The notes below the pieces were generated by a model. The model had not been told where the DNA came from and did not search any database. It saw nothing but the letters and a program-made list of their open reading frames with translations. A DNA stretch of 64,000 nt from an uncultured Thermoleophilia bacterium (GTDB lineage Bacteria; Actinomycetota; Thermoleophilia; UBA2241), in NCBI GenBank assembly GCA_903927755.1, contig CAIYOD010000072.1, positions 53,254 to 117,253 on the forward strand. Reading direction: 5' to 3'. Positions 10,516 to 48,933 of the stretch are shown here, piece by piece (position 1 is the first letter of the stretch; each line of letters opens with the position of its first letter). The translations under genes and the position numbers were made by a program.

Positions 10516-10655
10516 CTTCTCCCCTCTCGTCGCGCGAGCCCTGCCGCGCGTCGTCTCCTGCTCTCTAAGTCCGACCGCCGCGGGGCCCTTCGGGCCGGCG
10601 GCCGCTCAATGGCGCTCCGTGTCCTCGTGGCCCTCCGTACAGTAGTGCGACGCGG

Positions 10656-11441: not shown

Positions 11442-11501
11442 CGCGGCCCCCCGGCGCGAGGCGCCTGAGGCAGGCCGGGCACGATGCGGGAGCGCCCGGG
11501 G

Positions 11502-12038: not shown

Positions 12039-12056
12039 CAGGTCCCTCCCTACGGG

Positions 12057-12749
12057 TCAGAAGAGCACGCTCCCGACACGGACGATGGTCGCCCCTTCCT
12101 GGACGGCCACGTCGTAGTCGGCACTGGTACCCATCGATAGCTGCTCGAAAGTATACGTTCCGCTCCACGTGGTAGAAAGCCGTTCGGCCGACTCGCGCGC
12201 CCGCACGAAGAAGGGGCGCGCCTCCTCGGGGTCGTCGAAGAGCGGCGGCATGCACATGAGGCCGGTGAAGCGCACCTTGGGGCACGCCGCCGCCTCCTCG
12301 AGGAAGGCGTCGACCTCCGCGAGCGGCACGCCGCTCTTGCTCTCCTCCCCGCCGATGTTGACCTCCAGCAGTACGTCGGTGGCGTTCGCGGCCCTCGCCT
12401 CGATCTCCTGCACGACGCTCATGCTCCCGACTGAATGGATGAGGCTGACGATCGGCAGCACGAGCTTCGTCTTGCGACTCTGCAGGTGACCGATGAAGTG
12501 GTAGTCGAAGGCGTCGCCGTAGAGCTCGTGCTTGGCCACGAGGTCCTGGGCGCGGTTCTCGCCGATCAGGCGGATGCCGGCGTCGCGCAGCGCGCCCAGG
12601 TGCTCCGCGGCCACGTACTTGGTGGCGACGAGGACGCGCACGTCTGCCGGGTCGCGGCCAGCCGTCCCGGCCGCCTCGGCGACCCGGCTCTCGACCTCCG
12701 CGAACCGCTCACGGACCTTGTCCACATCGGGGATGAACTGTCTGACCAC
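12057..12749 (-). CDS. yggS: YggS-family pyridoxal-phosphate homeostasis protein
   Basis: 230 aa. The TKYV motif and FIGHLQSRK (PLP-binding Lys) are present. Confidence 0.9.
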   Translation of the reverse strand: MVRQFIPDVDKVRERFAEVESRVAEAAGTAGRDPADVRVLVATKYVAAEHLGALRDAGIRLIGENRAQDLVAKHELYGDAFDYHFIGHLQSRKTKLVLPIVSLIHSVGSMSVVQEIEARAANATDVLLEVNIGGEESKSGVPLAEVDAFLEEAAACPKVRFTGLMCMPPLFDDPEEARPFFVRARESAERLSTTWSGTYTFEQLSMGTSADYDVAVQEGATIVRVGSVLF

Positions 12750-12785
12750 GTCTTTCCTCCTCGGCGGCCTACTTCTGGGGCCGCC

Positions 12786-13577
12786 CTACGCTTCCTGCCG
12801 CCAGGCCACCGCCAGATGCCGCCCGGTCTTCCCCGCATCGCGGCGGTGCGAGAAGAAGCGGGCGTCGGAGGCGGTGCACAGCCCGGCGACCGAGACGGCG
12901 GCAGACGGCACGCCCGCCGACTCGAGGTCTCTGCGCGCGCAGCGCCAGAGGTCCACGGTCGCGGCGCCGGCGGAGCCCGGGAACCGGGCCTCGAACCGGC
13001 GCCGGAGTTCGTCGTCCACGGCGAAGCAACACGGGCCGATGCTCGGCCCCACGGCGGCCGCCACGAGGCGGCCGCGGCCGGCGAGCTCGGCCGCCGCCTT
13101 GCCGACGATGCCGGCCATCATGCCGCGCCAGCCGGCATGGACCGTGGCGAGCAGCGGGCCTTTCTCCCCCTCCGCAACGATCACGACCGGCACGCAGTCG
13201 GCGTAGCTGATGACGAGGCCGAGACCCGCCTCCGCGGTGAGCAGGCCGTCGTGCTCCCTGATCACGGTGGGGCTGTCGAGCGCGCCACGCCCTGCATCCG
13301 CCTCGCCGATCCACGCGAGCGAGGTCCCGTGGACCTGTCCGGGGACCACGAGCCGCTCCGGCGGCAGGCCGATCGCCGCGCACAGGCGGCGCCGGTTCTC
13401 CACGACGTGCTCGCGCTCGTCGTTCACCGACAAGCCGAGGTTGAGGGTATCGAACGGCGGCGCGGAGACCCCGCCCACGCGCGACGGGAACGCGGCGATC
13501 ACGCCGCCGGCGCGCCACTCGAGCCACTCGACCCCGCCGGCCTCGCGCCACCGCATGGCCGGCGTCACCAGAACCAT
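12786..13577 (-). CDS. pgeF: YfiH/PgeF family purine nucleoside phosphorylase (DUF152, laccase-domain protein)
   Basis: Internal start MVLVTPAMRW, 263 aa. Motifs GQVHGT and YADCVPV. Confidence 0.88.
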   Translation of the reverse strand: MVLVTPAMRWREAGGVEWLEWRAGGVIAAFPSRVGGVSAPPFDTLNLGLSVNDEREHVVENRRRLCAAIGLPPERLVVPGQVHGTSLAWIGEADAGRGALDSPTVIREHDGLLTAEAGLGLVISYADCVPVVIVAEGEKGPLLATVHAGWRGMMAGIVGKAAAELAGRGRLVAAAVGPSIGPCCFAVDDELRRRFEARFPGSAGAATVDLWRCARRDLESAGVPSAAVSVAGLCTASDARFFSHRRDAGKTGRHLAVAWRQEA

Positions 13578-14218
13578 CCCCCCGGCAGAAGGAGATTCCT
13601 GAGCGCGTCCACCACGGCGCCGAACGTGGCCTCGTAGAAGCCGGGGACGGCGATCATGAGCAGGAACAACCCCATGAAGGCGTAGTTGCCGTAGCGGTCG
13701 AGCTCCGCCCACTTGCGGTAGGTCGCGCGCGGCAGGAACCCGCCGAGGACGCGCGACCCGTCCAGCGGCGGGATCGGGATCAGGTTCAGCGTTCCAAGGA
13801 TCACGTTGAGCACGAAGAGCATCCAGAACGCCTGCAGCAGGAACGCGCTCCAGGTGTAGGTGAGCCAGATGCAGCCGGCGGCGACCAGTACGAGGGCGAA
13901 ATTGGTGATCGGGCCCGCCGCGCCCACCCAGGCCATGCCGCGCTGCCCGTCCCTGAAGAAGCGCGGGTCCACGGGCACCGGCTTCGCCCAGCCGAAGAAG
14001 AAGCTGCCGCCGGACCCCAGGAACGTGACCACGAGCATGATGGTGCCCCACGTGTCCAGGTGCTTGATGGGATTCAGCGTGAGGCGGCCGTGCGCCTTCG
14101 CCGTCGGATCGCCGAGCCGGTAGGCGACCCAGCCGTGCGCCAGCTCGTGCAGCACGAGGCTGACGATGAGCAAGGGCGAGACGAGGAGGAACTCGAGGAG
14201 CAGGTCCGAGTCGATCAC
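13565..14218 (-). CDS. site-2 protease family (M50) membrane metalloprotease
   Basis: 217 aa, multi-transmembrane, HELAHG zinc motif. Confidence 0.85.
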   Translation of the reverse strand: MIDSDLLLEFLLVSPLLIVSLVLHELAHGWVAYRLGDPTAKAHGRLTLNPIKHLDTWGTIMLVVTFLGSGGSFFFGWAKPVPVDPRFFRDGQRGMAWVGAAGPITNFALVLVAAGCIWLTYTWSAFLLQAFWMLFVLNVILGTLNLIPIPPLDGSRVLGGFLPRATYRKWAELDRYGNYAFMGLFLLMIAVPGFYEATFGAVVDALRNLLLPGGWFW

Positions 14219-16836
14219 GCGCGCTCCCGCATCCTGGCCGCCGCAAGGAGTTCCTCGTCCCGCTCATGGACCACACCGTTCAGCTTGAGGTGCAGCACGC
14301 TGCGCAGCACCTCACCCATACGCGGCCCGGAACTGAAGCCCAACTCCAGGAGGTCGTCGCCGCCGATGTCCAGGCGCACGTGACGCGTGACGTCCAGGAA
14401 GTGCGCCAGCCGGTCGGCGGCGATGCCGGAGCCGTCCAGCGTCATCGCCGCCAGCACGGCCTCAAGCGGCTCGCCGGCGGCCAGGTCGTACAGTCCCGCC
14501 TCGCTCGGCCCGCGGGCGACGCGATCCACGATTCGCCGGCCGACGACCAGCGCCCGCTCGAGGACGCGGGCGTCCACGCTGCGCACGCGCATGCGCACGG
14601 CCCAGGCGGCGATCTCCTCCGGATCCAGGTCCATCAGCAGCCAGACGAGGCGGAGCCGCCAGCGCGGCAGCTCATCCTCGAGCCGGTGCGCATCGCGCAG
14701 CCCGTCGGCGCGCCGCACCAGCCGGCGGGTGTCCGCGTCCACGCGCAACCGGCCGTGGATCGCCGGCCACACGCCGAGCTCCTCGGCGCGCCGCAGGGCG
14801 AAGTCGACCTTCTCTTCGTCCAGCAGGCTGACGAGCTCGTCGCGCAGCCGCGCCGAGGAGAGGTCGCCGACGAGGTCCATGGTGCAGCAGGCGCGGGCCA
14901 GGTTGAGCGTGTGCCCGTCCATGCGCAGGCCGTAGCGACTCTCGTAGCGGATCGCGCGCAGGATGCGCGTGGGGTCCTCGATGAAGCTGAGGTTGTGCAG
15001 GACGACGATGCGGCGGGCGTCCAGGTCCTCGCGCCCGCCGAAGTAGTCGAAGAGGTCACCGAACGTCTCGGGCTTGAGCGAGACCGCCATCGCGTTGATG
15101 CTGAAGTCGCGGCGGGCGAGGTCGCTGCGGATGCCGGCGTGCTCGACCTTGGGGAGCGCGCCGGGGTACTCATAGGATTCGGCCCGTGTGGAGGCGACGT
15201 CGACGCGCAGCCTCCCCGCGGCTCCCTCGGAGACGACCACCGCCGTGCCGAACTTCTCGTGCGGCCGCACGTGGCCCTTGAGTCGCGCGGCCAGCTCAGT
15301 CGCGAAGGCGATGCCATCGCCCTCGACGGCGAGGTCGACGTCGAACCCCGGCTCGCGCAGCAGCAGGTCGCGGACGGCGCCCCCGACCAGGTAGCAGCCG
15401 CGCACGCCGGCGGCGACCGCCTGGACATGACGGAGCAGGTCGTCCAGGCCGAGCTCGCCGAGCAGCCCTGCGAGGTTCGCGGTCACCGGCGCCGCGGGCT
15501 CGCGCCGGGGAGCCCCGGCCACCGACCGGCGCGACACGACGCCGGTGAGCGTCTCCACGGGCACCGGCTCGTCCTCTCCAGACTCGGGGTCCGCGGCCAC
15601 CACCGGCAGCCAGCCGACCTCGTCCTGCGCCAGCCTGAGCGCCACGCGCTCCAGCGGCGTCTGCGCCCACACGAGCGGGACGCGCGTGGTCATGACGGCC
15701 TTGACGGGAGCGTGCCCGAGTCCGTGCGCCGACGCTCGCTCCAGATCCGCCAGGGCCACGCGTCCGACGAGGAGGCCGTCGCGCAGGACGCCGACGCCGC
15801 CGAGGCCGTCGCGCCGGCAGAGCAGCGAGGCTTCGTCGACCGACGTGGTGTCGCCGACCATGGGGGGACCCGGCTCGAGAGCGTCGAGCGCGATCCTGGT
15901 CGGCGCGACCGCCGCCGGCGCCGCGGCGGCCACGGCCGCGGCGACCTCGTCCAAGGAGCCGTCCTTCACGACCGCGGATGCGGCGGCCGTGTGCCCGCCG
16001 CCGCCCACGGCGCGAAGCGCCGCGGCGACGTCCACGCGGCCGCCGCGGCTCCGGGCAGTGACGAAGACGCGTCCCTCCATCTCCACGAGCAGGAAGAAGG
16101 CGTCGCACCCGGTCAGGTCCATGACCCGATGGGCCACCACGCTGACGCCCTCCACGTACAGGTCCTCGTGCAGCGCCGAGAGCAGGACCGACGCCTCTGG
16201 GATCGGCAGCTCGACCGCCGCCTCCAGCGCTCCGGCGAGTGTGATGCGCTGCTCCGGCGTCAAGGCGTTGGTGAGCCACTTCTCGAGGAGTTCGGTGTCG
16301 GCGCCGGCGCGCATGCAGTAGGCGAGCGCCTCGGCGTCGCGGGTCGTCGTCGTCGCGAAGGTGAGCGACCCCGTGTCCTCGTGGATCCCGAGTGCGAACA
16401 CCGTCGCCTCGAACGGCGTCACCGGGATGCCCCGTTCGGCGATGATCCGCACGAGCAACGTCACCAGCGAGCCGTCTCCGGAGCTCACCAGCGCGTCGGG
16501 GTCCAGATAGTCCGGAAGGTCGCCCGGATGCGCGTGATGGTCGAACGCGACGACCTGGACGTCGGGACGGCCGCAGAGATCACCGAGGTCGCCAAGGCGG
16601 TTGGCGTGCACCGTGTCGACCAGGATGAGCCGGCGGACGCTGTCGCGGTCCACGTCCGTCGGGTCGACGACCGGGATGGCATCCGCATACAGCGCCTGGA
16701 ACTCGCGCACGTTGCGGTTGACGGCTCCGCCGAGGCTGATCTGCGCCTCGGGATACAGCTTGTGCGCCGCGACCATGGCGGCGAAGGCGTCGAAGTCGGT
16801 GTTGGTGTGCGTGGCGATGAGCTCAGGGGTGCGCAT
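14215..16836 (-). CDS. cca: multidomain DHH-DHHA1 phosphoesterase / CBS pair / CCA-adding tRNA nucleotidyltransferase (poly(A) polymerase family)
   Basis: 873 aa. DHH motif VVAFDHHAH and DHHA1 GGGHTAAAS at the N-terminus. C-terminal half has the GGAVRD...DVDLAV nucleotidyltransferase head and RNA-binding region. ATGA overlap with the S2P gene. Confidence 0.85.
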   Translation of the reverse strand: MRTPELIATHTNTDFDAFAAMVAAHKLYPEAQISLGGAVNRNVREFQALYADAIPVVDPTDVDRDSVRRLILVDTVHANRLGDLGDLCGRPDVQVVAFDHHAHPGDLPDYLDPDALVSSGDGSLVTLLVRIIAERGIPVTPFEATVFALGIHEDTGSLTFATTTTRDAEALAYCMRAGADTELLEKWLTNALTPEQRITLAGALEAAVELPIPEASVLLSALHEDLYVEGVSVVAHRVMDLTGCDAFFLLVEMEGRVFVTARSRGGRVDVAAALRAVGGGGHTAAASAVVKDGSLDEVAAAVAAAAPAAVAPTRIALDALEPGPPMVGDTTSVDEASLLCRRDGLGGVGVLRDGLLVGRVALADLERASAHGLGHAPVKAVMTTRVPLVWAQTPLERVALRLAQDEVGWLPVVAADPESGEDEPVPVETLTGVVSRRSVAGAPRREPAAPVTANLAGLLGELGLDDLLRHVQAVAAGVRGCYLVGGAVRDLLLREPGFDVDLAVEGDGIAFATELAARLKGHVRPHEKFGTAVVVSEGAAGRLRVDVASTRAESYEYPGALPKVEHAGIRSDLARRDFSINAMAVSLKPETFGDLFDYFGGREDLDARRIVVLHNLSFIEDPTRILRAIRYESRYGLRMDGHTLNLARACCTMDLVGDLSSARLRDELVSLLDEEKVDFALRRAEELGVWPAIHGRLRVDADTRRLVRRADGLRDAHRLEDELPRWRLRLVWLLMDLDPEEIAAWAVRMRVRSVDARVLERALVVGRRIVDRVARGPSEAGLYDLAAGEPLEAVLAAMTLDGSGIAADRLAHFLDVTRHVRLDIGGDDLLELGFSSGPRMGEVLRSVLHLKLNGVVHERDEELLAAARMRERA

Positions 16837-16882
16837 GCCTGAAGTATACGCGGACGGCCGTACGCGCCGGGTCAGGGCCGGC

Positions 16883-19045
16883 TCATGCCTTGAGGAGCCA
16901 GCCCAGCTCGTGACCGAAGGCGTCCTCGACGGCCGCCTTGAGCGGCGCGCTGGCGGGAGCGAGCAGCCCCGGGTCCGCCGTGAGCAACTCGGCGGCCAGC
17001 TCCCTCGCCCGCAGGAGCGCGACGCGGTCGCGCGCCAGGCGGGCGAGCTTCAGGTCCGGCACGCCCGCCTGGCGCGATCCCATCACCTGGCCTTCGCCGC
17101 GGATCTCCAGGTCTCTGTCTGCCAGCTCGAACCCGTCGTTCGTTTCGAGGAGGGCCTCGAGGCGGGCCTGCGAGCTGCCGGTCTCCGCGGTCGCGAACAG
17201 CAGGCAGTACGACTTCTCGCTGCCCCGTCCGACGCGCCCCCGGAGCTGGTGCAACTGCGCCAGCCCGAAGCGCTCCGCTCCTTCCACGATCATCACCGTG
17301 GCGTTGGGCACGTCGATGCCGACCTCGATCAGGCTCGTCGCGACCAGCACGTCGAGCTCCCCGCTCTTGAACGACCGCATGACGTCGTCCCGCTGGGCGG
17401 ACTTGAGCTGGCCGTGCGCCACCGCGACGCGTGCGTCGCGGAACGGCCCGGCCTGCAGACGTTCGGCTTCCGCCACCGCCGTGGCAGCGGAGATCGACTC
17501 GGACTCGTCGATGGCCGGGCACACCACGTAGACCTGACGGCCCCTCGCGATCTGCTTGCGCACGAAGTCGTAGCCGACCTCCCGCTTGTCCTCGTCCACG
17601 AGCCGGGTGACGACCGGCTGCCGACCCGCCGGTACGCCGGCGATGGTGGTGACGTCCAGATCCCCGTACACGGTCAGCGCGAGCGTGCGCGGGATTGGTG
17701 TGGCCGTCATGTGCAGGACGTGCGGGGCGCCGCCGGCGCGCTCCGTCCGGCGGACCAGGGCGTCGCGCTGTTCGACGCCGAAGCGGTGCTGCTCGTCCAC
17801 GACCACGAGGGCGAGGCCGGCGAAGCGCACGTCCTCCTGCAGGAGCGCGTGCGTGCCGATGGCGATGCGCGCCTCGCCGGAGGCGATACGCGCCAGCGCC
17901 TCTCGCCGCTCCCTGGCCGTCAGGGACGCCGTGACGAGCTCGGCCGGTGCGAGCGCGCCGACGAGCCGAGCCGCGGTCTCAGCATGCTGGGCGGCGAGCG
18001 TCTCCGTCGGCGCCAGGAGCACGCCCTGCAGCCCGGCCTCAGCGGCCCTGATCAGGCAGTAGAGGGCGACGACCGTCTTGCCCGAGCCGACGTCGCCCTG
18101 CAGCAGGCGCCGCATCGGCGTCTCGCGGCGCAGATCGGCCTCGAGTTCGTCCAGCGCCGCGAGCTGGTGCGCCGTCAGCTCGAAGGGCAAGCCGTCGAGG
18201 AAGGCCCGGCTGAGGTCTGCCGGCGCCGGCAGCGCCGGCGCGCTGTAGAGCTGCTGCTGCTCCTGCTTGTGCAGCAGCAGCCCGACCTGCATCAGCAACA
18301 GTTCCTCGAGGACGAGGCGCTCGCGGGCCAGCTTCGCCTCCGCGAGCGTGCGCGGCAGGTGCACGGCCGTGACCGCGTCGGCGCGGCCGGGCAGTCGCTC
18401 GCGCACGAGCAGCGCCGACGGCAGCGGATCCGGCAGGCGCCGCATGGCCGGGGCGACGGCGTGCACGAGGCCGCGAAGGAGCTTCGCCGAGACCTGCTCG
18501 CTCGCGGGGTACACCGAGACGACGCCCTCGGTGTGCACCCCTTCTCCGCTCTCCTCTTCGAGGATCTCGTGGCCCTTGACCGCGAACGACTGACGCCCGC
18601 CCTGGGGCCGGAAGGTGCCGCGCAGGCTCAGCCGCATGCCCTCCTGGAGGACTCTGGTCAGATAGCGCTGGTTGAACCACACCGCCTCCACCGCCCCGGT
18701 GTCGTCGCGGACCACCACGCGCACGATGTCCACCCGGCGGCGAGCGGTGCGGTCGGCGCTGACGCGAACGACCTCTCCGCGGATGGTGGCCTCCTCCCCG
18801 ACCTTGAGGTCGCGGATGCTCTTGCGGTCGCGGAAGTCCTCGTAGCGGCGCGGGAAGTGCTCGATGAGGTCGCCGACCGTCTCGAGGCCGAAGGTCGCGA
18901 GCCGGCGTGCCACGGCGGCCGTGACGTGCTCGAGGTCGGCGAGCGGACGTGCAAAGGCGGCCGGGTCGAACGAGAGGCGGGTGACCGGCGGTCGTTGGTC
19001 GTACCGACCGCCGCCGAAGCGATGCAGAGGTGGCTGCCCGGTCAC
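16883..19045 (-). CDS. recG: ATP-dependent DNA helicase RecG
   Basis: 720 aa with a wedge domain. Helicase motifs GDVGSGKT, DEQHRFG and TATPIPRT. Confidence 0.95.
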   Translation of the reverse strand: MTGQPPLHRFGGGRYDQRPPVTRLSFDPAAFARPLADLEHVTAAVARRLATFGLETVGDLIEHFPRRYEDFRDRKSIRDLKVGEEATIRGEVVRVSADRTARRRVDIVRVVVRDDTGAVEAVWFNQRYLTRVLQEGMRLSLRGTFRPQGGRQSFAVKGHEILEEESGEGVHTEGVVSVYPASEQVSAKLLRGLVHAVAPAMRRLPDPLPSALLVRERLPGRADAVTAVHLPRTLAEAKLARERLVLEELLLMQVGLLLHKQEQQQLYSAPALPAPADLSRAFLDGLPFELTAHQLAALDELEADLRRETPMRRLLQGDVGSGKTVVALYCLIRAAEAGLQGVLLAPTETLAAQHAETAARLVGALAPAELVTASLTARERREALARIASGEARIAIGTHALLQEDVRFAGLALVVVDEQHRFGVEQRDALVRRTERAGGAPHVLHMTATPIPRTLALTVYGDLDVTTIAGVPAGRQPVVTRLVDEDKREVGYDFVRKQIARGRQVYVVCPAIDESESISAATAVAEAERLQAGPFRDARVAVAHGQLKSAQRDDVMRSFKSGELDVLVATSLIEVGIDVPNATVMIVEGAERFGLAQLHQLRGRVGRGSEKSYCLLFATAETGSSQARLEALLETNDGFELADRDLEIRGEGQVMGSRQAGVPDLKLARLARDRVALLRARELAAELLTADPGLLAPASAPLKAAVEDAFGHELGWLLKA

Positions 19046-26464: not shown

Positions 26465-26620
26465 GCGCTCCAGGGCGGACGACGCCGAGGCGCCGAACCT
26501 GCTTCTCTCATCCGGACTGTGACCGTCGGCCCAGGAATCTCACCTGGTCGGCCCCTCTCGGGGTTCGCGGGCTGTACCGCCGGTGGGGACTTTCACCCCG
26601 CCCTGAAGCAGTGGTTGATC
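26465..26620 (-). ncRNA. FMN riboswitch (RFN element) with expression platform
   Basis: The reverse complement carries the conserved FMN-riboswitch segments (GGGGUGAAAGUCCCCACCGGCGGU, CCGACCAGGUGAGAUUCC and GUCCGGAUGAGAGAAG). It sits directly 5' of ribD. Confidence 0.85.
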
Positions 26621-41740: not shown

Positions 41741-42760
41741 TCAGGCCATCTTGCCGGCCCAGCGCGCCAGGCCGAGCACGCGGTCGGCGTACTCGCCGAA
41801 CGCCGCCGTCGGCAGCGACTGGGGGCCGTCGCAGAGGGCGTGCTCCGGATTGGGGTGCGTCTCCACCAGCACGCCGTCGGCCCCTGCAGCCACGCCGGCC
41901 AGCGAAAGCGGCAGCACCAGATCGAGCCTGCCTGCGGAGTGACTGGGATCGACGACCACGGGCAGGTGGCTGGCGAGCTTGATCACCGGCACGGCGCTGA
42001 TATCCAGGGTGTTGCGGGTGGCCGTCTCGAAGGTGCGGATGCCGCGCTCGCAGAGGATCACGTCCCGGTTGCCCTCCTTGAGGATGTATTCGGCCGACAT
42101 GAGCAGCTCTTCGATCGTCGTCGCCGGACCCCGCTTGAGGAGCACCGGCTTCCCGGCCTTGCCGAGCTCCGCGAGGAGCAGGAAGTTCTGGGTGTTGCGG
42201 GCGCCGACCTGGAGCACGTCGGCATAGGAGCACACGACGTCCAGGTCACGCGGGTCCATGACCTCGGTGACGATCGGCAGACCGGTCTCGGCCCGCGCGG
42301 CGGCCATCATCTTCAGGCCTTCCTCGCCGAGCCCCTGAAAGGCGTAGGGCGAGGTGCGCGGTTTGAAGGCGCCGCCGCGCATCATGTGGCCGCCCGCCGC
42401 CTTCACGGCCCGGGCGGCCTCCAGCACCTGTCCCGGCGTCTCGATGGAGCACGGCCCGGCGATGAGGGCGAAGTGCCCGCCGCCGATCTTCACCCCATTG
42501 ACGTCGATCACCGTGTCGCGCGCCTGGAACTCTCGGCTGACCAGCTTGTACGGACGCAGGATCGCGACGACCCGATCGACCCCGGGCATGGCCTCGAGCG
42601 GGAGCTCCGTGATCGCCTCGCGGTCGCCGATGACACCGATGACCGTGACGTCCTCACCCAGGGAGATGTGCGCGGTGGCGCCTGCCTCCTCGGCGCGCGC
42701 GCAGAGGTGCGCGACTTCCTGCTCCGTCGCACCCTCGTGCATGATCACCATCATGCTCAC
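41741..42760 (-). CDS. aroF: 3-deoxy-7-phosphoheptulonate (DAHP) synthase, type I-beta with N-terminal regulatory domain
   Basis: 339 aa. KDSA/AroA(G)-type DAHP synthase catalytic core. Confidence 0.85.
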   Translation of the reverse strand: MSMMVIMHEGATEQEVAHLCARAEEAGATAHISLGEDVTVIGVIGDREAITELPLEAMPGVDRVVAILRPYKLVSREFQARDTVIDVNGVKIGGGHFALIAGPCSIETPGQVLEAARAVKAAGGHMMRGGAFKPRTSPYAFQGLGEEGLKMMAAARAETGLPIVTEVMDPRDLDVVCSYADVLQVGARNTQNFLLLAELGKAGKPVLLKRGPATTIEELLMSAEYILKEGNRDVILCERGIRTFETATRNTLDISAVPVIKLASHLPVVVDPSHSAGRLDLVLPLSLAGVAAGADGVLVETHPNPEHALCDGPQSLPTAAFGEYADRVLGLARWAGKMA

Positions 42761-43887
42761 GAAGGTCGTCCTTCGCCGGCTCCCCCGGGGCCGACCTCGA
42801 GCGAGGCCAGCTTGTCCAGGAAGAACTCGATCTCATCCTCTGTGCCCACGGTCACCCGGGCCCACCCTGGGCACCCGAGCGCGTTGCCGTCGCGCACGAT
42901 CGCCCCCATGGAGAGCAGCGTGCCGCAGACCTTGTCGTGCGGGTCGCAGAGGTCGTTCATCTCGACGAGCATGAAGTTCGCCTGGCTGGGCACCGTGGCA
43001 CGGCCGCGCGCCGCGAGGCGTTCGACCATCAGGTCGCGGAGCCTGGCGTTGGTCTCGCGGCGTTCCGCGACCCGGTCGGGGTGCTTGAGCGCCTCGACTG
43101 CCGCGAGCTGGCCGAGCAGGTTCACGTTGAACGGCTGGCGGACCTTGTCGACCGCCTGCTTGACCTCGGGCGCGCAGACACCGTAGCCGGTGCGCAGGCC
43201 GCAGAGGCCGTAGATCTTGGAGAAGGTGCGCAGGACGACGACGTTGTCGTGATCTTTCTGGATCGCGAGACAGCCCTCGCGGTCCGCCGCGGTCACGAAC
43301 TCGATGTACGCCTCGTCGATCACGACCATGACGTCGTCCGGCACCGTCTCGACCAGCCGCCGCACATCGGCCGAGGGGACGTACGTTCCCGTGGGGTTGT
43401 TCGGGTTGCACACGAAGATCAGCTTGGTCCGCGAGGTGACGGCTGCGGCCATGGCCTCGAGATCGTGGGTGTAGTCCACCAGCGGGACGACCACGGGCAC
43501 GGCGCCGCGGATGTCGATGACGTCGCGGTAGGACGTGAACGACGGCGCGGCCAGCACCACTTCGTCGCCGCGCTCCAGGGTGGCGTGTGCCAGCAGGTAG
43601 AGCAGTTCGCAGGTGCCGCAGCCGACCGTGATCTGCTCGGGGCTGCGGTCGTGCTGGGCGGCGACGGCCTCGCGCAGGTCGGTGGAGAAGCCGTCCGGAT
43701 ACCGCTGCAGGCGGTCCAGGGCGCCGATGACCACTTCTTTCACCTCGGGGAACGGCGGCAGCGGGAACTCGTTCGACGCGAGCTTGACGACCTGCTCCAG
43801 GCCGAAACGCCGCTGCACCACCTCGATGGGGAGTCCGGGTTGGTACGGGACGATGCCGGCGAGCTCCGGGATGAAGCGGACGGTCAT
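42757..43887 (-). CDS. hisC: histidinol-phosphate / aromatic-amino-acid aminotransferase (class II PLP enzyme)
   Basis: 376 aa. PLP lysine in RTFSKIYGLCGLRTGY. Context with tyrA and aroF suggests aromatic amino-acid synthesis. Confidence 0.8.
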   Translation of the reverse strand: MTVRFIPELAGIVPYQPGLPIEVVQRRFGLEQVVKLASNEFPLPPFPEVKEVVIGALDRLQRYPDGFSTDLREAVAAQHDRSPEQITVGCGTCELLYLLAHATLERGDEVVLAAPSFTSYRDVIDIRGAVPVVVPLVDYTHDLEAMAAAVTSRTKLIFVCNPNNPTGTYVPSADVRRLVETVPDDVMVVIDEAYIEFVTAADREGCLAIQKDHDNVVVLRTFSKIYGLCGLRTGYGVCAPEVKQAVDKVRQPFNVNLLGQLAAVEALKHPDRVAERRETNARLRDLMVERLAARGRATVPSQANFMLVEMNDLCDPHDKVCGTLLSMGAIVRDGNALGCPGWARVTVGTEDEIEFFLDKLASLEVGPGGAGEGRPS

Positions 43888-43959: not shown

Positions 43960-44958
43960 TCAGGTGTCGTCGCCGGCCCGCGGCATGTCCGGCTCCCCGG
44001 ACGGCTCCGCGAGGGCGTCCGACGGGCCGGACTCGCCGGACCGGCCATCGCTCTCGACACGCTCGTCGCTCTCGGCCGGGCCGGCATCGAACGGCTGCGG
44101 TTCTCCCTGCTCCGCCGCGCTCGCGGCGTCCGCGAGGAGCGCCGCCTCGGGGCTGAGCGGCGCGGCCACCGCATCGACCTCGGCGGCCAGCATGAGGGGC
44201 GGTCCTTCGACTTCCTTGGCTACCTCGCCGGCCACCTCTTCCCCGGCTCGCCGCAGCGATTCGACCTCGTCGCCGCTGAGCTCGCGGAAGCCGCCGGGCT
44301 CGAGCCCCTTGTCCGTGAGCGGACCGTAGCGGCGGCGGCTGAGCTCCTCCACGGGCAGACCGACGGAGAGGAACATGCGCCGCACCTGGCGCTTGCGGCC
44401 CTCGTGGATGGTGATCTCGACGAGGGCCGTCTTCGCACTCTGCTTCTTGAGCTTGACGTCTGCGGGGGACGTCGGGCCGTCCTCGAGGTCCACGCCCTGG
44501 CGCAGCGTGCCGAGCGCGCGCCGGCTGACCTTGCCGCGCACACGCGCGACGTACGTCTTGGGCACGCCGTACCGGGGATGCATGAGGCGATTGGCCAGCA
44601 CCCCGTCGTTGGTGAGGATGATGAGCCCCGTCGTGTCGACGTCCAGGCGGCCGACCGGGAACAGGGCGCGGCCGTTCGGCACCATGTCGACGATCACGCG
44701 ATCGGCGTGCGGGTCGCTGCGCGTGCTGGCGACCCCTCGCGGCTTGTTGACCAGGAAGTAGCGCAGCTCGCGGGCGCTGACCGGCTCGCCGCGCACCGCG
44801 ACCACGTCCTCAGGCGTGACCTTCTGGCGGGGAAACGTGACCACCTCGTCGTTCACCGTCACGACGCCTTCGCGGATGAGCTCGTCGCACGAACGGCGCG
44901 AGCCGACGCCGGCGCGCGCGAGGTAGACGACCAGGTTCATGGGCGGGGCAGGGCTCAT
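43960..44958 (-). CDS. rluB: 23S rRNA pseudouridine synthase RluB (RsuA family) with acidic C-terminal tail
   Basis: S4 domain followed by FPVGRLDVDTTGLIILTNDG. About 90 aa of acidic low-complexity C-terminus. ATG overlaps the scpB stop. Confidence 0.88.
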   Translation of the reverse strand: MSPAPPMNLVVYLARAGVGSRRSCDELIREGVVTVNDEVVTFPRQKVTPEDVVAVRGEPVSARELRYFLVNKPRGVASTRSDPHADRVIVDMVPNGRALFPVGRLDVDTTGLIILTNDGVLANRLMHPRYGVPKTYVARVRGKVSRRALGTLRQGVDLEDGPTSPADVKLKKQSAKTALVEITIHEGRKRQVRRMFLSVGLPVEELSRRRYGPLTDKGLEPGGFRELSGDEVESLRRAGEEVAGEVAKEVEGPPLMLAAEVDAVAAPLSPEAALLADAASAAEQGEPQPFDAGPAESDERVESDGRSGESGPSDALAEPSGEPDMPRAGDDT

Positions 44959-45530
44959 TGGGCCCTCCTCTCGGCGTTTGCATGGAGCCGGGAGCGGATC
45001 TCGTCGACTTCGTCGGCGCCCAGCGAGAACTCCTCCAGCGGCGGCAGCTCGTTGCGGCTGGTGAGTCCGAACAATCTCAGGAAGCGCTCTCCGGTACCGT
45101 AGAGGACCGGCGCGCCCGGCGTGTCGGCGCGGCCTTGCTGCTCCACGAGGCCGCGCTCCTCCAGCGCTCCAAGCGCATACTCGGACGAGACGCCGCGGAC
45201 TTCGGCGATCTCGGCCCGGGTGACGGGCTCGAGGTAGGCGACCACGGCAAGCGTCTCCAGGAGCGCCGGCGTGAGCTCGTCGGGCTTCTCCGCGCCCGTG
45301 AACCTGCGGACGTCCTCGGCGCAGTCGTCGGCGACGGCGAACGTGACCCCTCCGGCGACGTCACGGATCTCGATGCCGTGCACTCCGGTGGCGTACTCGG
45401 TGCGCAGCGCCTGCAGCGCATCCGCCCCCTCCTCATCGGTGCACGCACACGCCTCGGCCAGCCTGTCGGCCGCGATGGGTCGCGAAGAGATGAAGAGCAG
45501 CGCCTCGAGGCGCCGTGCGAGTGGATGCAT
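44955..45530 (-). CDS. scpB: segregation and condensation protein B
   Basis: Start MHPLARRLEALLFISSRPIAADRLAEA, 191 aa, tandem winged-helix. Confidence 0.9.
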   Translation of the reverse strand: MHPLARRLEALLFISSRPIAADRLAEACACTDEEGADALQALRTEYATGVHGIEIRDVAGGVTFAVADDCAEDVRRFTGAEKPDELTPALLETLAVVAYLEPVTRAEIAEVRGVSSEYALGALEERGLVEQQGRADTPGAPVLYGTGERFLRLFGLTSRNELPPLEEFSLGADEVDEIRSRLHANAERRAQ

Positions 45531-45588
45531 GCCGGAGTCGGATCGGACGACGGGACGAGTCGATGCTACCGCACGGCGGCGGCCGGCG

Positions 45589-46365
45589 TCACCCGATGAC
45601 GGGCGCCGGCGCCGTGATGCGGCTGACCACGATGTCGCCGAAGTGCCGCGTCTGACGTAGACGGGCCTCACCGCTGGAGTGCAGTTCGAGCAGCGCGAAG
45701 AACGTGACCGCCCGCTCGAGCCTGCCCCGCGGAGCCACGGCCGCGAAGGTGAACTCGCCCTCGTCGTCGAGGATGAGCCTGAGGCGGCGAAGTTCCTTGA
45801 CGAGAGACACGGCCAGGTCGGCGAGGTGACTGGTGTCGGGGACCGGAGGCTCGCGCAGCAACGGGGTGAGTGCGTCCGCCAGCACGCCGGCTGAGAGCGC
45901 TCCGTCGACGACGCGCCGGCGCAGCAGCCCGGCTGGGACCGGCGCGTGGCGGTAGAGGCGCGCGCTGTGTTCCTCCCACGCCGTCCGGAGCGAGCCGGCG
46001 GCGTTGCGGAACTGGCTGTAGCGGACGAGCCGCTCAAGCAGCTGACGCGCCGCCTCGTCGGGGTCCAGATCCTCGAACTCCTCCTCGACATCCTCCTCCA
46101 GCAGGAGGCGCGACTTCATCTCGAGCAGCGCGGCGACGAGCACCACGAACTGCGAGGTCGCGTCGAGGTCGAACTCACCCGTGTCGGCCAGATGGACGAC
46201 GTACTCCGCGATGATCCGCGAGACGCGGACCTCCCAGATGTCGATCTCGTCACGCAGGATCAGCGTGACCAGCAGGTCGAACGGTCCGTCGAAGACGTCG
46301 AGGTCGAGCTCGAGCATCACGGGAGGTGCGGCGACGGCGCTGGCCTCAGCACGCATCGCCGTCAC
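45589..46365 (-). CDS. scpA: segregation and condensation protein A (kleisin)
   Basis: 258 aa. ScpA-type kleisin N-terminus, FDGPFDLLVTLILRDEIDIWEVRVSRI. Confidence 0.9.
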   Translation of the reverse strand: MTAMRAEASAVAAPPVMLELDLDVFDGPFDLLVTLILRDEIDIWEVRVSRIIAEYVVHLADTGEFDLDATSQFVVLVAALLEMKSRLLLEEDVEEEFEDLDPDEAARQLLERLVRYSQFRNAAGSLRTAWEEHSARLYRHAPVPAGLLRRRVVDGALSAGVLADALTPLLREPPVPDTSHLADLAVSLVKELRRLRLILDDEGEFTFAAVAPRGRLERAVTFFALLELHSSGEARLRQTRHFGDIVVSRITAPAPVIG

Positions 46366-46388
46366 CTCCGCTCTTGACCATGCTCTTC

Positions 46389-47588
46389 CTAGTCTTCCGG
46401 CTGATTGACGAACGACGGGATGTCGAAGTCGTTGTCGTCGAACCGCGGCGCGGGACCGAAGAGCGGACCGCGCTCAGGCTTGGGCTCGGCTTTGGGGGCG
46501 GGGCCGCGGCTCTCGGGGCTCCGCGGCGGCGCCTGCGCGTGTCTCACGTCGTCACCGAACCCGGTGGCCACGACGGTGATGGAGATCTTGCCCTCGAGCT
46601 TCTCGTCGACCACGGCGCCGAAGATGATGTTGGCGTCGTCGTCGGCCGCCTCGCTGATGACGCCGGCGGCCTCGTTGACCTCGAAGAGCGTGAGGTCCTC
46701 GCCGCCGGTGATGTTGAGCAGCAGCCCGCGCGCGCCCTCGATGCTCGTCTCGAGGAGCGGCGAGTGGATCGCCATGTCGGCGGCGGCTTGGGCACGGTTC
46801 TCGCCGCCGGCGACGCCGATGCCGAGCAGGGCGGTGCCGGCGTCGTGCACGATCGTGCGCACGTCGGCGAAGTCCAGGTTGATGAGACCCGGCACGGTGA
46901 TGAGGTCGGTCACGCCCTGCACGCCCTGCCGCAGGATGTCGTCCGCGTGCTGGAACGCCTCGACGACGCTCGCATTGCGCTCGACGACGTCCAGCAGGCG
47001 ATCGTTGGGAATGGAGATGACCGTGTCGGCCACCTCCCGCAGCGCGTCGATACCGTCGAGCGCCTGGCGCTGGCGGCGATTGCCCTCGAAACCGAAGGGC
47101 TTGGTGACGATGGCGATGGTGACGGCGCCGAGCTCTCTGGCGATCTGCGCCACGACGGGCGCGCCGCCGGTGCCCGTGCCGCCGCCTTCGCCGGCGGTCA
47201 CAAAGACCAGATCGGCGCCGCGCAGTGCGGCCTTGAGCTGGTCGCGGCTGACTTCCATGGCCTCACGGCCGACTTCGGGATCGGCTCCGCCGCCGAGTCC
47301 GTGCGTGATCTCCTGCCCGATGTGGATCTTGACGTCCGCATCGCACACGTCGAGCTGCTGCACGTCGGTGTTGACGGCGATGAACTCGACGCCCTTGACG
47401 CCGGAGTCGACCATCCGGTTCACGGCGTTGGTGCCGGCGCCGCCGATGCCGACCACCTTGATGGTCGTCACGTACGGCCGGCCCTTGACTGGAGCGTCCG
47501 CGCCCGCGGCATCCGGGATAGACCCGCCGCTGTCGGTGCGCCGGAAGAGCTCGCTCAGTCCATCCTTCATGCTAGGACGATCTGCCAT
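46389..47588 (-). CDS. ftsZ: cell-division GTPase FtsZ
   Basis: 399 aa. Motifs IKVVGIGGAGTNAVNRM and GGGTGTG, the NTD and T7 loop, and a C-terminal conserved peptide DIPSFVNQ. About 40 aa N-terminal extension. Confidence 0.95.
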   Translation of the reverse strand: MADRPSMKDGLSELFRRTDSGGSIPDAAGADAPVKGRPYVTTIKVVGIGGAGTNAVNRMVDSGVKGVEFIAVNTDVQQLDVCDADVKIHIGQEITHGLGGGADPEVGREAMEVSRDQLKAALRGADLVFVTAGEGGGTGTGGAPVVAQIARELGAVTIAIVTKPFGFEGNRRQRQALDGIDALREVADTVISIPNDRLLDVVERNASVVEAFQHADDILRQGVQGVTDLITVPGLINLDFADVRTIVHDAGTALLGIGVAGGENRAQAAADMAIHSPLLETSIEGARGLLLNITGGEDLTLFEVNEAAGVISEAADDDANIIFGAVVDEKLEGKISITVVATGFGDDVRHAQAPPRSPESRGPAPKAEPKPERGPLFGPAPRFDDNDFDIPSFVNQPED

Positions 47589-48330
47589 TCAGCACCTCCC
47601 GCGCGAGGGCGCGGTACGATTCTGCTCCCCTGCCTTTGGGATCGTACTTGAGCACCGAGGAGCCCGTCACGGGCGCCTCGGCGAACTTGATGGTCTTGCG
47701 CACGACGGTGTCGAAGACGAGGTCGCCGAAGTTCTCGCGCAGGACCTCGATCGACTCCTTGCCGTGGTGGGTGCGCGCGTCGAACAACGTCGGCAGGATG
47801 CCCTGGATGCGCACGTCCGGGTTGAGGTTCTCGCGGATCATCTCCAGCGTCTTCTCCAGCTGCAGCAGCCCGCGCAGCGAGAGGTACTCGCACTGCACAG
47901 GCACGATGACCCCCTCGGAGGCGGTCAGCGCGTTGATCGTGAGCAGCCCCAGAGACGGCGGCGTGTCGATGAGGATGTAGTCGTACTTGTCGCGGACGGC
48001 GTCGAGGGCGCGCTGCAGAGCCCGCTCGCGCCCGATCATCGTGGCCAGGGCCATCTCCGCACCGGCCAGGTCGATGGTGGAGGCGGCGACGTCCAGTTCG
48101 CGCTCGTAGATGACGTCCTCGATGGGCGTCCGGTGCACGAGGACGTCGTACATGCTCTTCTCGAGGCCCTCGGTGTCGATGCCCTGGCTCATGGTCAGGT
48201 TGCCCTGGGGGTCCATGTCGACGGCGAGCACGCGCAAGTCGTGCTCGCGGAGGGCCGCGCCGAGGTTCACCGTCGAGGTGGTCTTGGCCACCCCACCCTT
48301 CTGATTGGCGAACGCGAGAACATGCGCCAT
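47572..48330 (-). CDS. orphan ParA/Soj-family ATPase
   Basis: 252 aa. Deviant Walker A NQKGGVAKTT. Position upstream of scpA matches M. tuberculosis Rv1708. Confidence 0.88.
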   Translation of the reverse strand: MAHVLAFANQKGGVAKTTSTVNLGAALREHDLRVLAVDMDPQGNLTMSQGIDTEGLEKSMYDVLVHRTPIEDVIYERELDVAASTIDLAGAEMALATMIGRERALQRALDAVRDKYDYILIDTPPSLGLLTINALTASEGVIVPVQCEYLSLRGLLQLEKTLEMIRENLNPDVRIQGILPTLFDARTHHGKESIEVLRENFGDLVFDTVVRKTIKFAEAPVTGSSVLKYDPKGRGAESYRALAREVLNGRSS

Positions 48331-48390
48331 GTGAGCGTTACCCCTGTGTCGAGTCCACGTCAGAACGCAGTTCGGGCCGCAGGCAAGAAT

Positions 48391-48420
48391 CCCTGCATGA
48401 GACGGGCCCCGCAGCGTCTG
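48391..48420 (-). terminator. probable terminator hairpin downstream of yajC
   Basis: RNA reads GGGCCCCGCAG-acg-CUGCGGGGCCC, an 11-bp perfect stem. No clean U-tract. Confidence 0.5.
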
Positions 48421-48471
48421 CGGGGCCCGTGGTCACACGCTGCGTCCTGGTCGGTGCCGGGGACGGCGGCG

Positions 48472-48933
48472 TCACGCCTTGGGAGCCTCCGGTGCATCCG
48501 GTGCATCGGGCGTCTCGTCGGTGGCTTCGTCGGCCGTCTCTTCCACGACTTCATCGTCCTCGACGACATCCTCGTCGTCCTCGACGTACTCCTCGTCGGC
48601 CACCTCGGTGACATCCTCTTCGGCGGCCTCGATGTACTCGTCCTCTTCCTCTTCTTCGTCGTACTCATCGATGCTGGTGATCGACGAGATGGCGCGCTTC
48701 AGGTAGCGGACCTTGGTGCGTTTGGCGACCTCGAGCTCTACCCAGTCGTCGCCGATGCCGCTGATGGTCCCGAACATGCCGCCGATGGTGACCACCTCGT
48801 CACCCTTCTTGAGCATGCTCACCATCTCGGCGTGCTGCTGCTTCTGACGGCGCTGCGGGCGGATCGCGAGGAAGTAGAAGATCCCGAAGAAAACGAGGAT
48901 CCAGATAATGATCGTGAACGACACGGACCTCAA
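48472..48933 (-). CDS. yajC: preprotein translocase subunit YajC with long acidic C-terminal extension
   Basis: N-terminal 90 aa is typical YajC (a single transmembrane segment plus the KKGDEVVTIGGMFGTI region). The C-terminal 60 aa is about 60% Asp/Glu. Confidence 0.88.
   Translation of the reverse strand: MRSVSFTIIIWILVFFGIFYFLAIRPQRRQKQQHAEMVSMLKKGDEVVTIGGMFGTISGIGDDWVELEVAKRTKVRYLKRAISSITSIDEYDEEEEEDEYIEAAEEDVTEVADEEYVEDDEDVVEDDEVVEETADEATDETPDAPDAPEAPKA

Follow-up and report, generated by a model that had tools for sequence, protein, structure and literature searches.

The DNA analyzed here is a 64-kb stretch (64,000 nt, hereafter the window) from an uncultured bacterium of the Thermoleophilia; its G+C content is approximately 70%, and transcription is nearly all from the minus strand. 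Between positions 43,960 and 48,330 it carries a gene for a ParA-like ATPase that overlaps a gene for the cell division protein FtsZ, followed by the condensin genes scpA and scpB and a pseudouridine synthase gene. We focus on the parA-like gene and the adjoining ftsZ, designated ftsZ1, which we treat as a candidate two-gene module, and in particular on a conserved N-terminal extension of FtsZ1. The features of the locus are the following.

47572..48330, minus strand: parA-like gene, a deviant Walker-A ATPase of 252 aa (PF13614, 1.5e-60; also CbiA, ParA and MipZ), first gene of the module
46389..47588, minus strand: ftsZ1, a full-length FtsZ paralog of 399 aa (Tubulin and FtsZ_C domains, TIGR00065), second gene of the module
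47572..47588, minus strand: 17-nt overlap of the parA stop and the ftsZ1 start, read from the sequence; an independent gene caller set the same start
47595..47600, minus strand: GGGAGG, the Shine-Dalgarno sequence of ftsZ1, within parA and 6 nt 5′ of the ATG at 47588
47535..47588, minus strand: conserved N-terminal peptide MADRPSMKDGLSELFRRT, ftsZ1 codons 1–18, recognized by invariance together with synonymous variation
47463..47534, minus strand: variable disordered linker, ftsZ1 codons 19–42, whose sequence and length vary in relatives (predicted local distance difference test score, pLDDT, <40)
46392..46427, minus strand: C-terminal conserved peptide FDIPSFVNQPED of FtsZ1, kept in all proteins of type 1 (see below)
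45589..46365, minus strand: scpA (kleisin; PF02616)
44955..45530, minus strand: scpB (PF04079; TIGR00281 with 115 bits, cutoff 89), start set at the ATG at 45530
43960..44958, minus strand: rluB-type pseudouridine synthase gene (S4 and PseudoU_synth_2 domains, TIGR00093)

An earlier reading of this DNA (the original prediction) had proposed the gene order parA-like/ftsZ/scpA/scpB/rluB, which was confirmed by Pfam and NCBIfam matches. The 17-nt parA–ftsZ overlap, the placement of scpA 23 nt after ftsZ, and the GGGTGTG loop and DIPSF tail of FtsZ that it described were likewise found in the sequence. The 23 nt refer to the first possible scpA start, a GTG at 46365; a better start, the ATG at 46356, lies 32 nt past the ftsZ stop. 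In addition, rluB overlaps the scpB stop as ATGA. The 64-kb window contains no second ftsZ or parA. Because of these gene overlaps and short gaps, parA-ftsZ1-scpA-scpB-rluB probably constitute one operon in the sub-lineage of the window, and the 17-nt overlap is a putative site of translational coupling.

FtsZ1 scored 411.7 bits against the TIGR00065 equivalog model, well above its cutoff of 295.2, and contained the PF00091 (8.5e-47) and PF12327 (3.9e-34) domains. Its GEGGGTGTGG (T4) loop and the T7 loop NLDFADV were invariant in 46 relatives, its motifs for GTP binding and polymerization are all kept, and the protein is very probably competent for GTP hydrolysis, as predicted from its sequence. 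The C-terminal peptide, which reads DDVLDIPSFLRD in the paralog of the dcw (division and cell wall) cluster discussed below and LEPPSFL in type 1b, is a putative docking site of FtsZ partners such as SepF. With canonical dcw FtsZ of Mycobacterium tuberculosis and Bacillus subtilis, FtsZ1 shares the GGGTGTG and T7 loops, the C-terminal linker and the DIPSF-type peptide; it differs from them in having an extra N-terminal peptide and linker, a GGAG T1 loop (GGGG in canonical FtsZ), and an overlap with a parA gene. Seven core positions alone are diagnostic of FtsZ1, and two of these, R67H and A71G (B. subtilis numbering), are further differences from canonical FtsZ, located in the T3 loop. Whereas canonical ftsZ lies at the distal end of the mur/fts cluster, after ftsQ/ftsA, ftsZ1 is flanked by parA and scpA. 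A TubZ-like role in DNA segregation was considered as the primary reading and rejected, since the FtsZ equivalog cutoff is passed and the SepF-type tail is kept.

The window FtsZ was used to scan one genome per prokaryotic species, and two sharply separate sets of matches were obtained. Members of the first set (L001–L033), all from uncultured Thermoleophilia metagenome-assembled genomes (MAGs), matched over the full length with 66–96% identity, and every one of them kept the order queA-tgt-yajC-parA-ftsZ-scpA-scpB-rluB. Members of the second set (L034–L080) showed 57–69% identity to FtsZ1 (64% for copies of the same genome), their matches began only at residue ~39, and none had window-type neighbors. 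Pfam annotation of one of these loci (L055) yielded murE-murF-mraY-murD-ftsW-murG-murC-ftsQ-ftsZ, that is, the dcw cluster, and other members of the set largely agreed. Nine related genomes were found to carry both FtsZ1 and the dcw FtsZ (FtsZ2). The two genes were located on the same contig in three cases (L004/L055, 171 kb apart; L009/L039, 182 kb; L081/L042, ~150 kb) and in the same MAG in the others (L033/L050, L006/L063, L017/L066, L020/L034, L032/L041 and L011/L060). In the same-contig cases, the dcw copy lies 5′ of ftsZ1 in the same orientation, beyond the 16 kb of upstream sequence available in the window. Among the two-copy relatives, L033 and L004 have FtsZ1 proteins that are 96% and 93% identical, respectively, to the window FtsZ. 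Because relatives also carry a canonical murC-ftsQ-ftsZ copy, comparative evidence indicates that the window FtsZ is a divergent, faster-evolving paralog alongside an ordinary dcw FtsZ.

It could alternatively be argued that the window ftsZ is the sole FtsZ of this organism, moved from the dcw cluster into a segregation/condensation operon in which septation and condensin loading would be co-regulated. This possibility was suggested by the absence of a second ftsZ from the 64-kb window, by the presence there of a sepF block without ftsZ, and by the tight packing of ftsZ1, scpA, scpB and rluB in this sub-lineage. However, the nine relatives, including those with 93% and 96% identical FtsZ1, do have a dcw ftsZ, which in the same-contig cases is 150–180 kb 5′ and would thus fall outside a window of this size; in addition, a sister module (type 1b) occurs without scpAB, and the apparent FtsZ–ScpA fusions proved to be frameshift artefacts (both described below). 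We therefore regard a sole, relocated FtsZ as highly improbable. The statement of the original prediction that ftsZ is found at this locus in place of the division cluster accordingly has to be withdrawn for this lineage, in which a canonical dcw copy, the observation that it had itself named as speaking against it, is present in nine relatives. As a more general caution, an ftsZ seen outside the dcw cluster in a limited window does not show that the dcw copy is missing.

Over 304 core columns, FtsZ1 was 70% identical to FtsZ2 (64% over the whole protein). Identity to the M. tuberculosis and B. subtilis proteins over the same columns was 62% and 60% for FtsZ1, and 69% and 68% for FtsZ2. In a neighbor-joining tree based on these columns, FtsZ1 was monophyletic in 100% of bootstraps, as were the dcw copies of the same clade, and all Thermoleophilia FtsZ proteins, including FtsZ1, grouped against the M. 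tuberculosis and Bacillus outgroups in 94%. Between the same pairs of genomes, FtsZ1 had changed 2–4.5 times as much as FtsZ2. Its pattern of conservation indicates that FtsZ1 is a derived paralog under purifying selection and not a decaying copy.

To delineate the module in environmental samples, metagenomes were scanned with a degenerate DNA pattern that encodes the N-terminal peptide only, and at least 120 loci were detected. Among the matches listed, all of these were parA–ftsZ pairs wherever flanking sequence exists. Two types could be distinguished. Type 1 (at least 16 loci) showed the yajC-parA-ftsZ-scpA-scpB-rluB context of the window wherever the contig was long enough. Type 1b (at least 104 loci) was found in a Lhr-Fpg-u392-u79…GGT context, with scpAB in none of the matches listed: Lhr, Fpg and two unknown open reading frames (ORFs) are located 5′ of the pair, acetyltransferases and γ-glutamyltranspeptidase (GGT) are located 3′, and yajC is absent as well. 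Counting genomes (33 loci) and metagenomes (at least 120) together, peptide-bearing parA–ftsZ1 pairs are present at more than 150 loci in two unrelated neighborhoods. The parA-ftsZ-scpAB arrangement itself is kept in 33 species-level genomes and at least 16 metagenome contigs, and it is therefore not a feature of chance or assembly.

The overlap of the two genes was also conserved. Among the matches listed, 96 metagenome loci extend 800 nt or more upstream, and in 93 of these the ParA ORF stop overlapped the ftsZ start. An overlap of 17 nt was kept in 27 of 31 related genome loci and in 11 of 14 type-1 metagenome loci, and one of 29 nt in 92 of 106 type-1b loci, so that one of these two lengths occurs in ~90% of loci. 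These counts bear out the physical coupling of ftsZ to a parA-like gene noted in the original prediction. Its further point, a coupling to the condensin kleisin genes, turned out to be specific to one sub-lineage: scpA follows ftsZ1 in all type-1 loci and in no type-1b locus among the matches listed, so that the parA–ftsZ part of the proposed synteny stands in two contexts and the scpAB part in one only. Gene order thus indicates that the conserved unit is the parA-like gene plus ftsZ1, not the condensin genes, and that the adjacency of scpAB is peculiar to the sub-lineage of the window and secondary.

Type 1b was found through three top-scoring, anomalously long ParA matches, which led to a Gaiellaceae MAG (L082) and two metagenome contigs (L083, which is truncated, and L084). 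The ParA encoded in L082 and L084 is ~65–70% identical to that of the window and is overlapped by 29 nt by an FtsZ of 444–459 aa, which has a ~100-aa Pro/Ala/Glu-rich linker, a core with the GGAG T1 loop, and the LEPPSFL tail. FtsZ proteins of types 1 and 1b clustered in 70% of bootstraps and have in common derived states at two positions, V131I and D304G in B. subtilis numbering, as well as the replacement of K by E at core column 52 and the GGAG T1 loop. Because the two types group together and share these states, the data indicate that the duplication and the ParA linkage are older than the split of the type 1 and type 1b sub-lineages. The module comes from soils and sediments and from two deep Thermoleophilia sub-lineages (Gaiellaceae-like MAGs). 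In databases, its proteins bear no other names than "cell division protein FtsZ" and "chromosome partitioning protein"; the module is widespread, in abundant soil Actinomycetota, yet unannotated as a ParA–FtsZ system.

Several irregular sequences were encountered in these sets. Two apparent FtsZ–ScpA fusions, a 671-aa ORF (L024, 10001..12013) and a 627-aa protein with Tubulin, FtsZ_C and ScpA domains (P0072), were rejected as frameshift artefacts, the true frame ending in IPSFVNQPEE followed by a stop codon. Several long-read MAG loci (L024, L033 and P0072) are frameshifted in ftsZ1 in this manner, which creates false FtsZ–ScpA fusions in public protein sets. Three ParA matches of 374–387 aa, from three samples (P0121, P0122 and P0123, encoded in L082 at 8001..9125, L083 and L084), were considered as natural ParA–FtsZ fusions and also rejected; they are ParAs with internal partial duplications of ~125 aa and differing junctions, compared to a lineage norm of 256 aa, and these duplications may be real or artefacts of assembly. 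Two conserved ORFs without Pfam matches (~393 aa and ~80 aa) occur directly 5′ of parA at many type 1b loci (L082, 6440..7915; L087, L092, L098, L206, L207 and others); they may be further module components, and they have no homolog in the window. Finally, a HisC-like class I/II aminotransferase gene lies a few genes 3′ of the module in both contexts (window 42757..43887, minus strand; L082 13805..14938; 44% identity), which may reflect a once shared gene order or be coincidental.

The N-terminal extension of FtsZ1 that the original prediction had called atypical is real: it reaches ~30 aa beyond the FtsZ of M. tuberculosis and B. subtilis, as well as beyond the paralog of the same lineage, and it begins with a conserved peptide of ~15 residues. 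In 46 FtsZ1 proteins (75–95% identity), residues M1, R4, P5, S6, M7, D9, G10, L11, E13, L14, F15, R16 and R17 were invariant, and the ~20 residues after the peptide varied freely. The type 1b N-terminus, MARKRASMREGPLAELFRAT, which begins with MARKRASMR, contains the same motif as MADRPSMKDGLSELFRRT plus one Pro. The consensus over both types is S-M-[KR]-[DE]-G-(P)-L-[SA]-E-L-F-R-x-T, and basic residues are conserved at R4, K/R8 and R16. In ftsZ1 codons 7–18, which lie past the parA overlap, the amino acids are kept with up to four synonymous codons each; such synonymous variation with fixed residues points to selection on the peptide itself. We conclude from these patterns that the extension is functional and conserved and does not stem from a wrongly assigned start codon. 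Median lengths of the stretch in front of the core are 42 aa for type 1 and 122 aa (range 56–227) for type 1b, in which it is Pro/Ala/Glu-rich; overall, the disordered linker is 20–200 aa long. An AlphaFold2 model of FtsZ1, built from a shallow alignment (mean pLDDT 65), comprised a low-confidence helix at residues 7–19, disorder at residues 20–42, a normal FtsZ core, and a disordered C-terminal linker and tail (pLDDT <40 for residues 346–399). No confident cis-docking of the N-terminal helix onto FtsZ1 was seen in this model.

A predicted helix with a hydrophobic face formed by M7, L11, L14 and F15 could in principle be an amphipathic membrane-targeting helix by which FtsZ1 anchors itself, the ParA linkage being unrelated. 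The membrane-targeting helices of MinD, FtsA and SepF are indeed similar to the peptide in length. However, known helices of this kind are strongly basic, whereas the FtsZ1 peptide carries no net charge and its core includes two acidic residues that are invariant (D/E9 and E13). Moreover, the SepF-type tail already gives FtsZ1 a means of anchoring, and the linkage to ParA would be left unexplained; we consider self-anchoring improbable.

A different comparison is suggested by the partners of ParA/MinD ATPases. These proteins are usually encoded beside the ATPase and consist of a short basic N-terminal peptide, an unstructured region, and an interaction or assembly domain (PMC7993993). They include ParB, MinE, PomX, McdB and ParG, and PomX's N-terminal domain is Ala/Pro-rich (PMC7993993). 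Judged by this description, FtsZ1 has the architecture of an ATPase-activating partner, as its gene overlaps the ATPase gene and its basic N-terminal peptide is followed by a disordered linker. Similar to ParB, PomX (NPEP), MinE and McdB, it is encoded directly 3′ of the ATPase gene and combines such a peptide with a Pro/Ala-rich tether and a self-assembling body. In contrast to them, its body is an FtsZ, which has been described for no such partner, and its role as an activator is putative.

These features also bear on another explanation, in which FtsZ1, like the additional FtsZ proteins of Hyphomicrobiales, is a plain regulatory or partly redundant duplicate that tunes the Z-ring by co-polymerizing, and ParA is only a co-expressed neighbor. 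Independent duplications of bacterial ftsZ are known and are thought to fine-tune division (bioRxiv 10.1101/2025.09.29.679267); FtsZ1 keeps all polymerization motifs and a dcw-type C-terminal peptide, and just seven core positions are diagnostic of it. Nevertheless, a plain duplicate would leave unexplained why the ParA overlap is found at more than 150 peptide-bearing loci in two neighborhoods, and why the peptide is placed on an N-terminal flexible tether as in ATPase-activating partners. The known ftsZ duplicates are, furthermore, mostly truncated and have no ParA link (bioRxiv 10.1101/2025.09.29.679267). We consider this explanation, under which the peptide would bind some other target (the FtsZ core itself, a protease adaptor or another protein of the divisome, for instance), unlikely.

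The ParA-like protein was compared with ParAs of known structure, and its closest solved relative is the Myxococcus xanthus ParA crystal 8ray (218 bits); the Mycobacterium smegmatis chain 4pfs, a presumed homolog of Rv1708, scored 197 bits. It contains the motif NQKGGVAKTT; the signature lysine K11 and D38, D40 and N44 of Motif 2 were invariant in 128 module ParAs, and the Walker A residue K16 was present in 127 of them (one K16R). The ParBc/Srx domain of ParB was not detected in Pfam scans of the ~65 window ORFs, and the gene next to parA is ftsZ1, whereas in ParABS systems a ParB gene adjoins parA. Sequence and context indicate that the ParA-like protein is a Soj-type orphan ParA. In an alignment of the window ParA with the crystal chain of M. 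xanthus ParA, whose register was checked by the D60A mutation and by all published residue identities, the following positions correspond.

Pocket: M. xanthus V116, window M93
Pocket: M. xanthus L150, window L127
Pocket: M. xanthus L152, window L129
Pocket: M. xanthus L155, window I132
Pocket: M. xanthus L187, window M164
Pocket: M. xanthus L192, window L169
Arginine-binding patch: M. xanthus Y81, window Y61
Arginine-binding patch: M. xanthus E82, window D62
Arginine-binding patch: M. xanthus D110, window D87
Arginine-binding patch, lost: M. xanthus E117, window A94
DNA binding: M. xanthus R238, window K215 (K/R215 in module ParAs)

The pocket, which in canonical ParA receives the N-terminal peptide of ParB, was hydrophobic in nearly all of the 128 ParAs from the two module types (three have Q at position 164). 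The residues corresponding to Y81, E82 and D110 are retained, and the one corresponding to E117 is replaced with Ala in both module types. In M. xanthus, the ParA-binding helix of ParB presents L11, L15, L18 and I19 (spacing i, i+4, i+7, i+8) together with a central Arg/Lys (PMC12462528). FtsZ1 residues M7, L11, L14 and F15 have the same hydrophobic spacing, and the acidic residue at the central position of the FtsZ1 peptide goes together with the Ala that replaces the conserved Glu in ParA. The FtsZ1 peptide is by its sequence not a ParB-type motif, although it may work in a similar way.

On these grounds we propose that the parA-like gene and ftsZ1 form a two-gene module in which a ParA-type ATPase is served by a dedicated FtsZ paralog acting as its cargo and activator. 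The descriptive part of this proposal (a paralog, an obligate ParA linkage, and a tethered conserved peptide) is very likely correct, and for the proposal as a whole we see about an even chance. Specifically, the N-terminal peptide of FtsZ1 would dock in the hydrophobic pocket of the DNA-bound ParA·ATP dimer and would stimulate its ATPase, in the way in which ParB, MinE, PomX and McdB act on their own ATPases with their N-terminal peptides. A filament of FtsZ1, which displays many peptides, would then be a multivalent cargo of a nucleoid-bound ParA gradient and would be moved to a particular position on the nucleoids or between them. At that position, the C-terminal peptide of FtsZ1 would bind SepF, and FtsZ1, perhaps co-assembled with the dcw FtsZ, would seed or time the septum together with it, thus setting the place and time of septum formation. 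A role of the peptide as the ParA handle, and of FtsZ1 filaments as the multivalent cargo and activator of DNA-bound ParA, is by analogy plausible, with a chance not quite even. The broader idea that ParA-mediated positioning of FtsZ itself selects the division site, without Min, Noc, MipZ or adaptors of the PomXY type, is tentative and in our view has a chance somewhat below even.

Several observations weigh against this proposal. The 17 nt at the start of ftsZ1 code for both proteins, and conservation of residues 1–6 is thus partly forced. No sequence homology of the peptide to ParB N-termini could be detected: when the N-terminal 42 aa were compared by HMMER with 1.84 billion representative proteins, the matches were FtsZ1 fragments only and no other family, and for this reason a detectable mimicry of ParB, or a motif present in other ParA clients as well, was dropped as an explanation of the peptide. 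The critical central Arg/Lys of the ParB motif (i+2) corresponds to an invariant Asp/Glu in FtsZ1, with Lys/Arg at i+1, and the i, i+4, i+7, i+8 pattern is one that amphipathic helices in general share. As regards the paralogy, the window's own genome and the type-1b genomes are assumed from their relatives to have a dcw copy, and the rooting and age of the duplication are uncertain, given that only neighbor-joining was used and long-branch effects may be present.

A second way to connect the two proteins would be inhibition. In this case, the ParA-like protein would resemble MipZ or a nucleoid-occlusion factor and, while bound to DNA, would use the peptide as a handle and block polymerization of FtsZ1 over the chromosome. 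ParA-family regulators of FtsZ do exist, namely MipZ, PomXYZ and the septum-localized PldP (PMC3989709; PMC7993993), the Pfam MipZ model matches the window ParA weakly, and its DNA-binding and dimerization residues are kept. On the other hand, the MipZ gradient needs ParB, and Pfam scans of the window ORFs revealed no ParB nearby. We regard inhibition as quite unlikely, although the evidence does not separate it from the cargo model, because both involve the same peptide–ParA contact.

With regard to known systems, the proposed cargo role of FtsZ1 can be placed next to MipZ of Caulobacter, PomXYZ of Myxococcus, and PldP/Rv1708 of Corynebacterium and Mycobacterium, in which a DNA- or nucleoid-binding ParA-like ATPase is likewise tied to the choice of the division site. 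In these systems, however, FtsZ is an ordinary single copy reached through adaptors or inhibition, whereas FtsZ1 seems to bear the ParA handle itself. PldP/Rv1708 is likewise an orphan ParA, adjoining scpAB (Rv1708–Rv1713), and the ParA-like protein of the window is a possible ortholog. The scpA-scpB-rluB…cmk…der synteny of the window resembles that of Rv1708–Rv1713; however, ftsZ1 intervenes in the window, type 1b is located away from scpAB, and the score to the M. smegmatis chain (197 bits) is lower than that to M. xanthus ParA (218 bits). It has been reported that PldP localizes to septa and that its loss leads to minicells (PMC3989709), and that Rv1708 binds ScpA and ParB (PMC10482377).

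FtsZ duplicates have been described in Hyphomicrobiales, including Agrobacterium (FtsZ1/FtsZ3), in Bradyrhizobium, and in archaea (FtsZ1/FtsZ2) (bioRxiv 10.1101/2025.09.29.679267). As in the present case, the cell has one canonical and one diverged copy, with a presumed division of labor. In most duplicates from bacteria, linker and C-terminal peptide are missing, and there is no link to ParA; the FtsZ1 of the module, which belongs to Actinomycetota, is full-length and has gained an N-terminal element. Compared to the truncated paralogs of the Hyphomicrobiales type (GTPase only or with a short linker), it retains both linker and C-terminal peptide. Full-text literature yielded nothing relevant on FtsZ in Thermoleophilia or Gaiella, on an actinobacterial FtsZ paralog, or on a ParA-linked, N-terminally extended FtsZ. 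There is precedent for a ParA involved in segregation as well as division, but none for a dedicated FtsZ partner; the combination of an FtsZ paralog joined to ParA as a putative activating partner appears to be new.

The module bears on the question of how the division site is chosen without Min or nucleoid occlusion, notably in Actinomycetota, where orphan ParAs such as PldP/Rv1708 have been implicated. It offers a concrete ParA–FtsZ link, in which the two genes are joined and the FtsZ has a tethered N-terminal peptide of the kind found in ParA/MinD partners. If the peptide docks on ParA, this would be the first FtsZ found as a ParA cargo, as well as a natural case of the idea that a peptide grafted on any scaffold makes an ATPase partner.

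The pgeF-yggS-sepF-proC-divIVA block of the window lies ~34 kb 3′ of ftsZ1, behind an M50 protease gene.

9568..13565, minus strand: pgeF-yggS-sepF-proC-divIVA block without ftsZ (pgeF PF02578)
11502..12038, minus strand: sepF (PF04472)

The region of 9.5–19 kb contains recG, a DHH-CBS-CCA enzyme, the M50 (S2P) protease, pgeF, yggS, sepF, proC, divIVA, yggU, lspA, rluD and pyr genes; Pfam matches agreed with the original prediction that the pgeF-yggS-sepF-divIVA block is preceded by the S2P protease and the CCA enzyme, not by ftsZ. Its SepF is likely the membrane anchor of both FtsZ copies via their C-terminal peptides. In outgroup Thermoleophilia (L044, L046, L053, L054 and L080), the order was dcw-ftsZ-pgeF-yggS-sepF-proC-divIVA, continuing to rluD in four of them, and this comparison indicates that the order is ancestral. 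In the two-FtsZ clade, secD-secF directly follow the dcw ftsZ2 (L055 11147..13756; dcw loci of L034–L066). YajC is the usual operon partner of SecDF; as yajC directly precedes parA-ftsZ1 and secDF directly follow ftsZ2, the two ftsZ copies are located at the halves of a split yajC|secDF junction. Single-event rearrangements (tandem duplication, or inversion between the ftsZ copies) were considered for yajC|parA-ftsZ1 and ftsZ2|secDF, and none fits the order and orientation. Directly 5′ of the M50 protease and the pgeF-sepF block, a 944-codon stop-to-stop ORF (14218..17049, minus strand) combines DHH and DHHA1 phosphoesterase, CBS, and poly(A) polymerase/CCA-adding head domains, an unusual fusion for a CCA enzyme.

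Two elements were found between yajC and parA by folding and alignment.

48404..48428, minus strand: GC-rich hairpin after yajC, with a 13-bp stem in the minimum-free-energy fold
48355..48397, minus strand: 43-nt block (TGCAGGGATTC…GAAC…GACGTGG), conserved across loci in which the flanking intergenic DNA has diverged

The stem of the hairpin is maintained in relatives through compensatory changes, and the hairpin is likely a transcription boundary 5′ of the module; it has no U-tract and for that reason is not called by a consensus terminator scan. The 43-nt block is a candidate promoter or leader, such that the two elements resemble a candidate terminator followed by a promoter/leader. A scan of 43.5–49.2 kb gave no consensus sigma-70 promoter (the 43-nt block included) and no intrinsic terminator, such consensus scans being uninformative for an actinobacterium with 70% G+C.

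Other neighbors of the module include ruvCAB, queA, tgt and yajC on the 5′ side, and hisC, aroF, tyrA, cmk, plsC, ispH, a DUF512 gene, der, plsY and gpsA on the 3′ side. Two of the adjoining proteins have acidic C-terminal tails: the RluB-type synthase (43960..44958, minus strand) ends in a low-complexity stretch of ~90 aa, and YajC (48472..48933, minus strand; 153 aa) in an Asp/Glu-rich tail of ~70 aa. Elsewhere in the window, an FMN riboswitch (RF00050, 110 bits) was detected at 26496..26614 on the minus strand, 5′ of a ribD/ribBA/ribH riboflavin operon.

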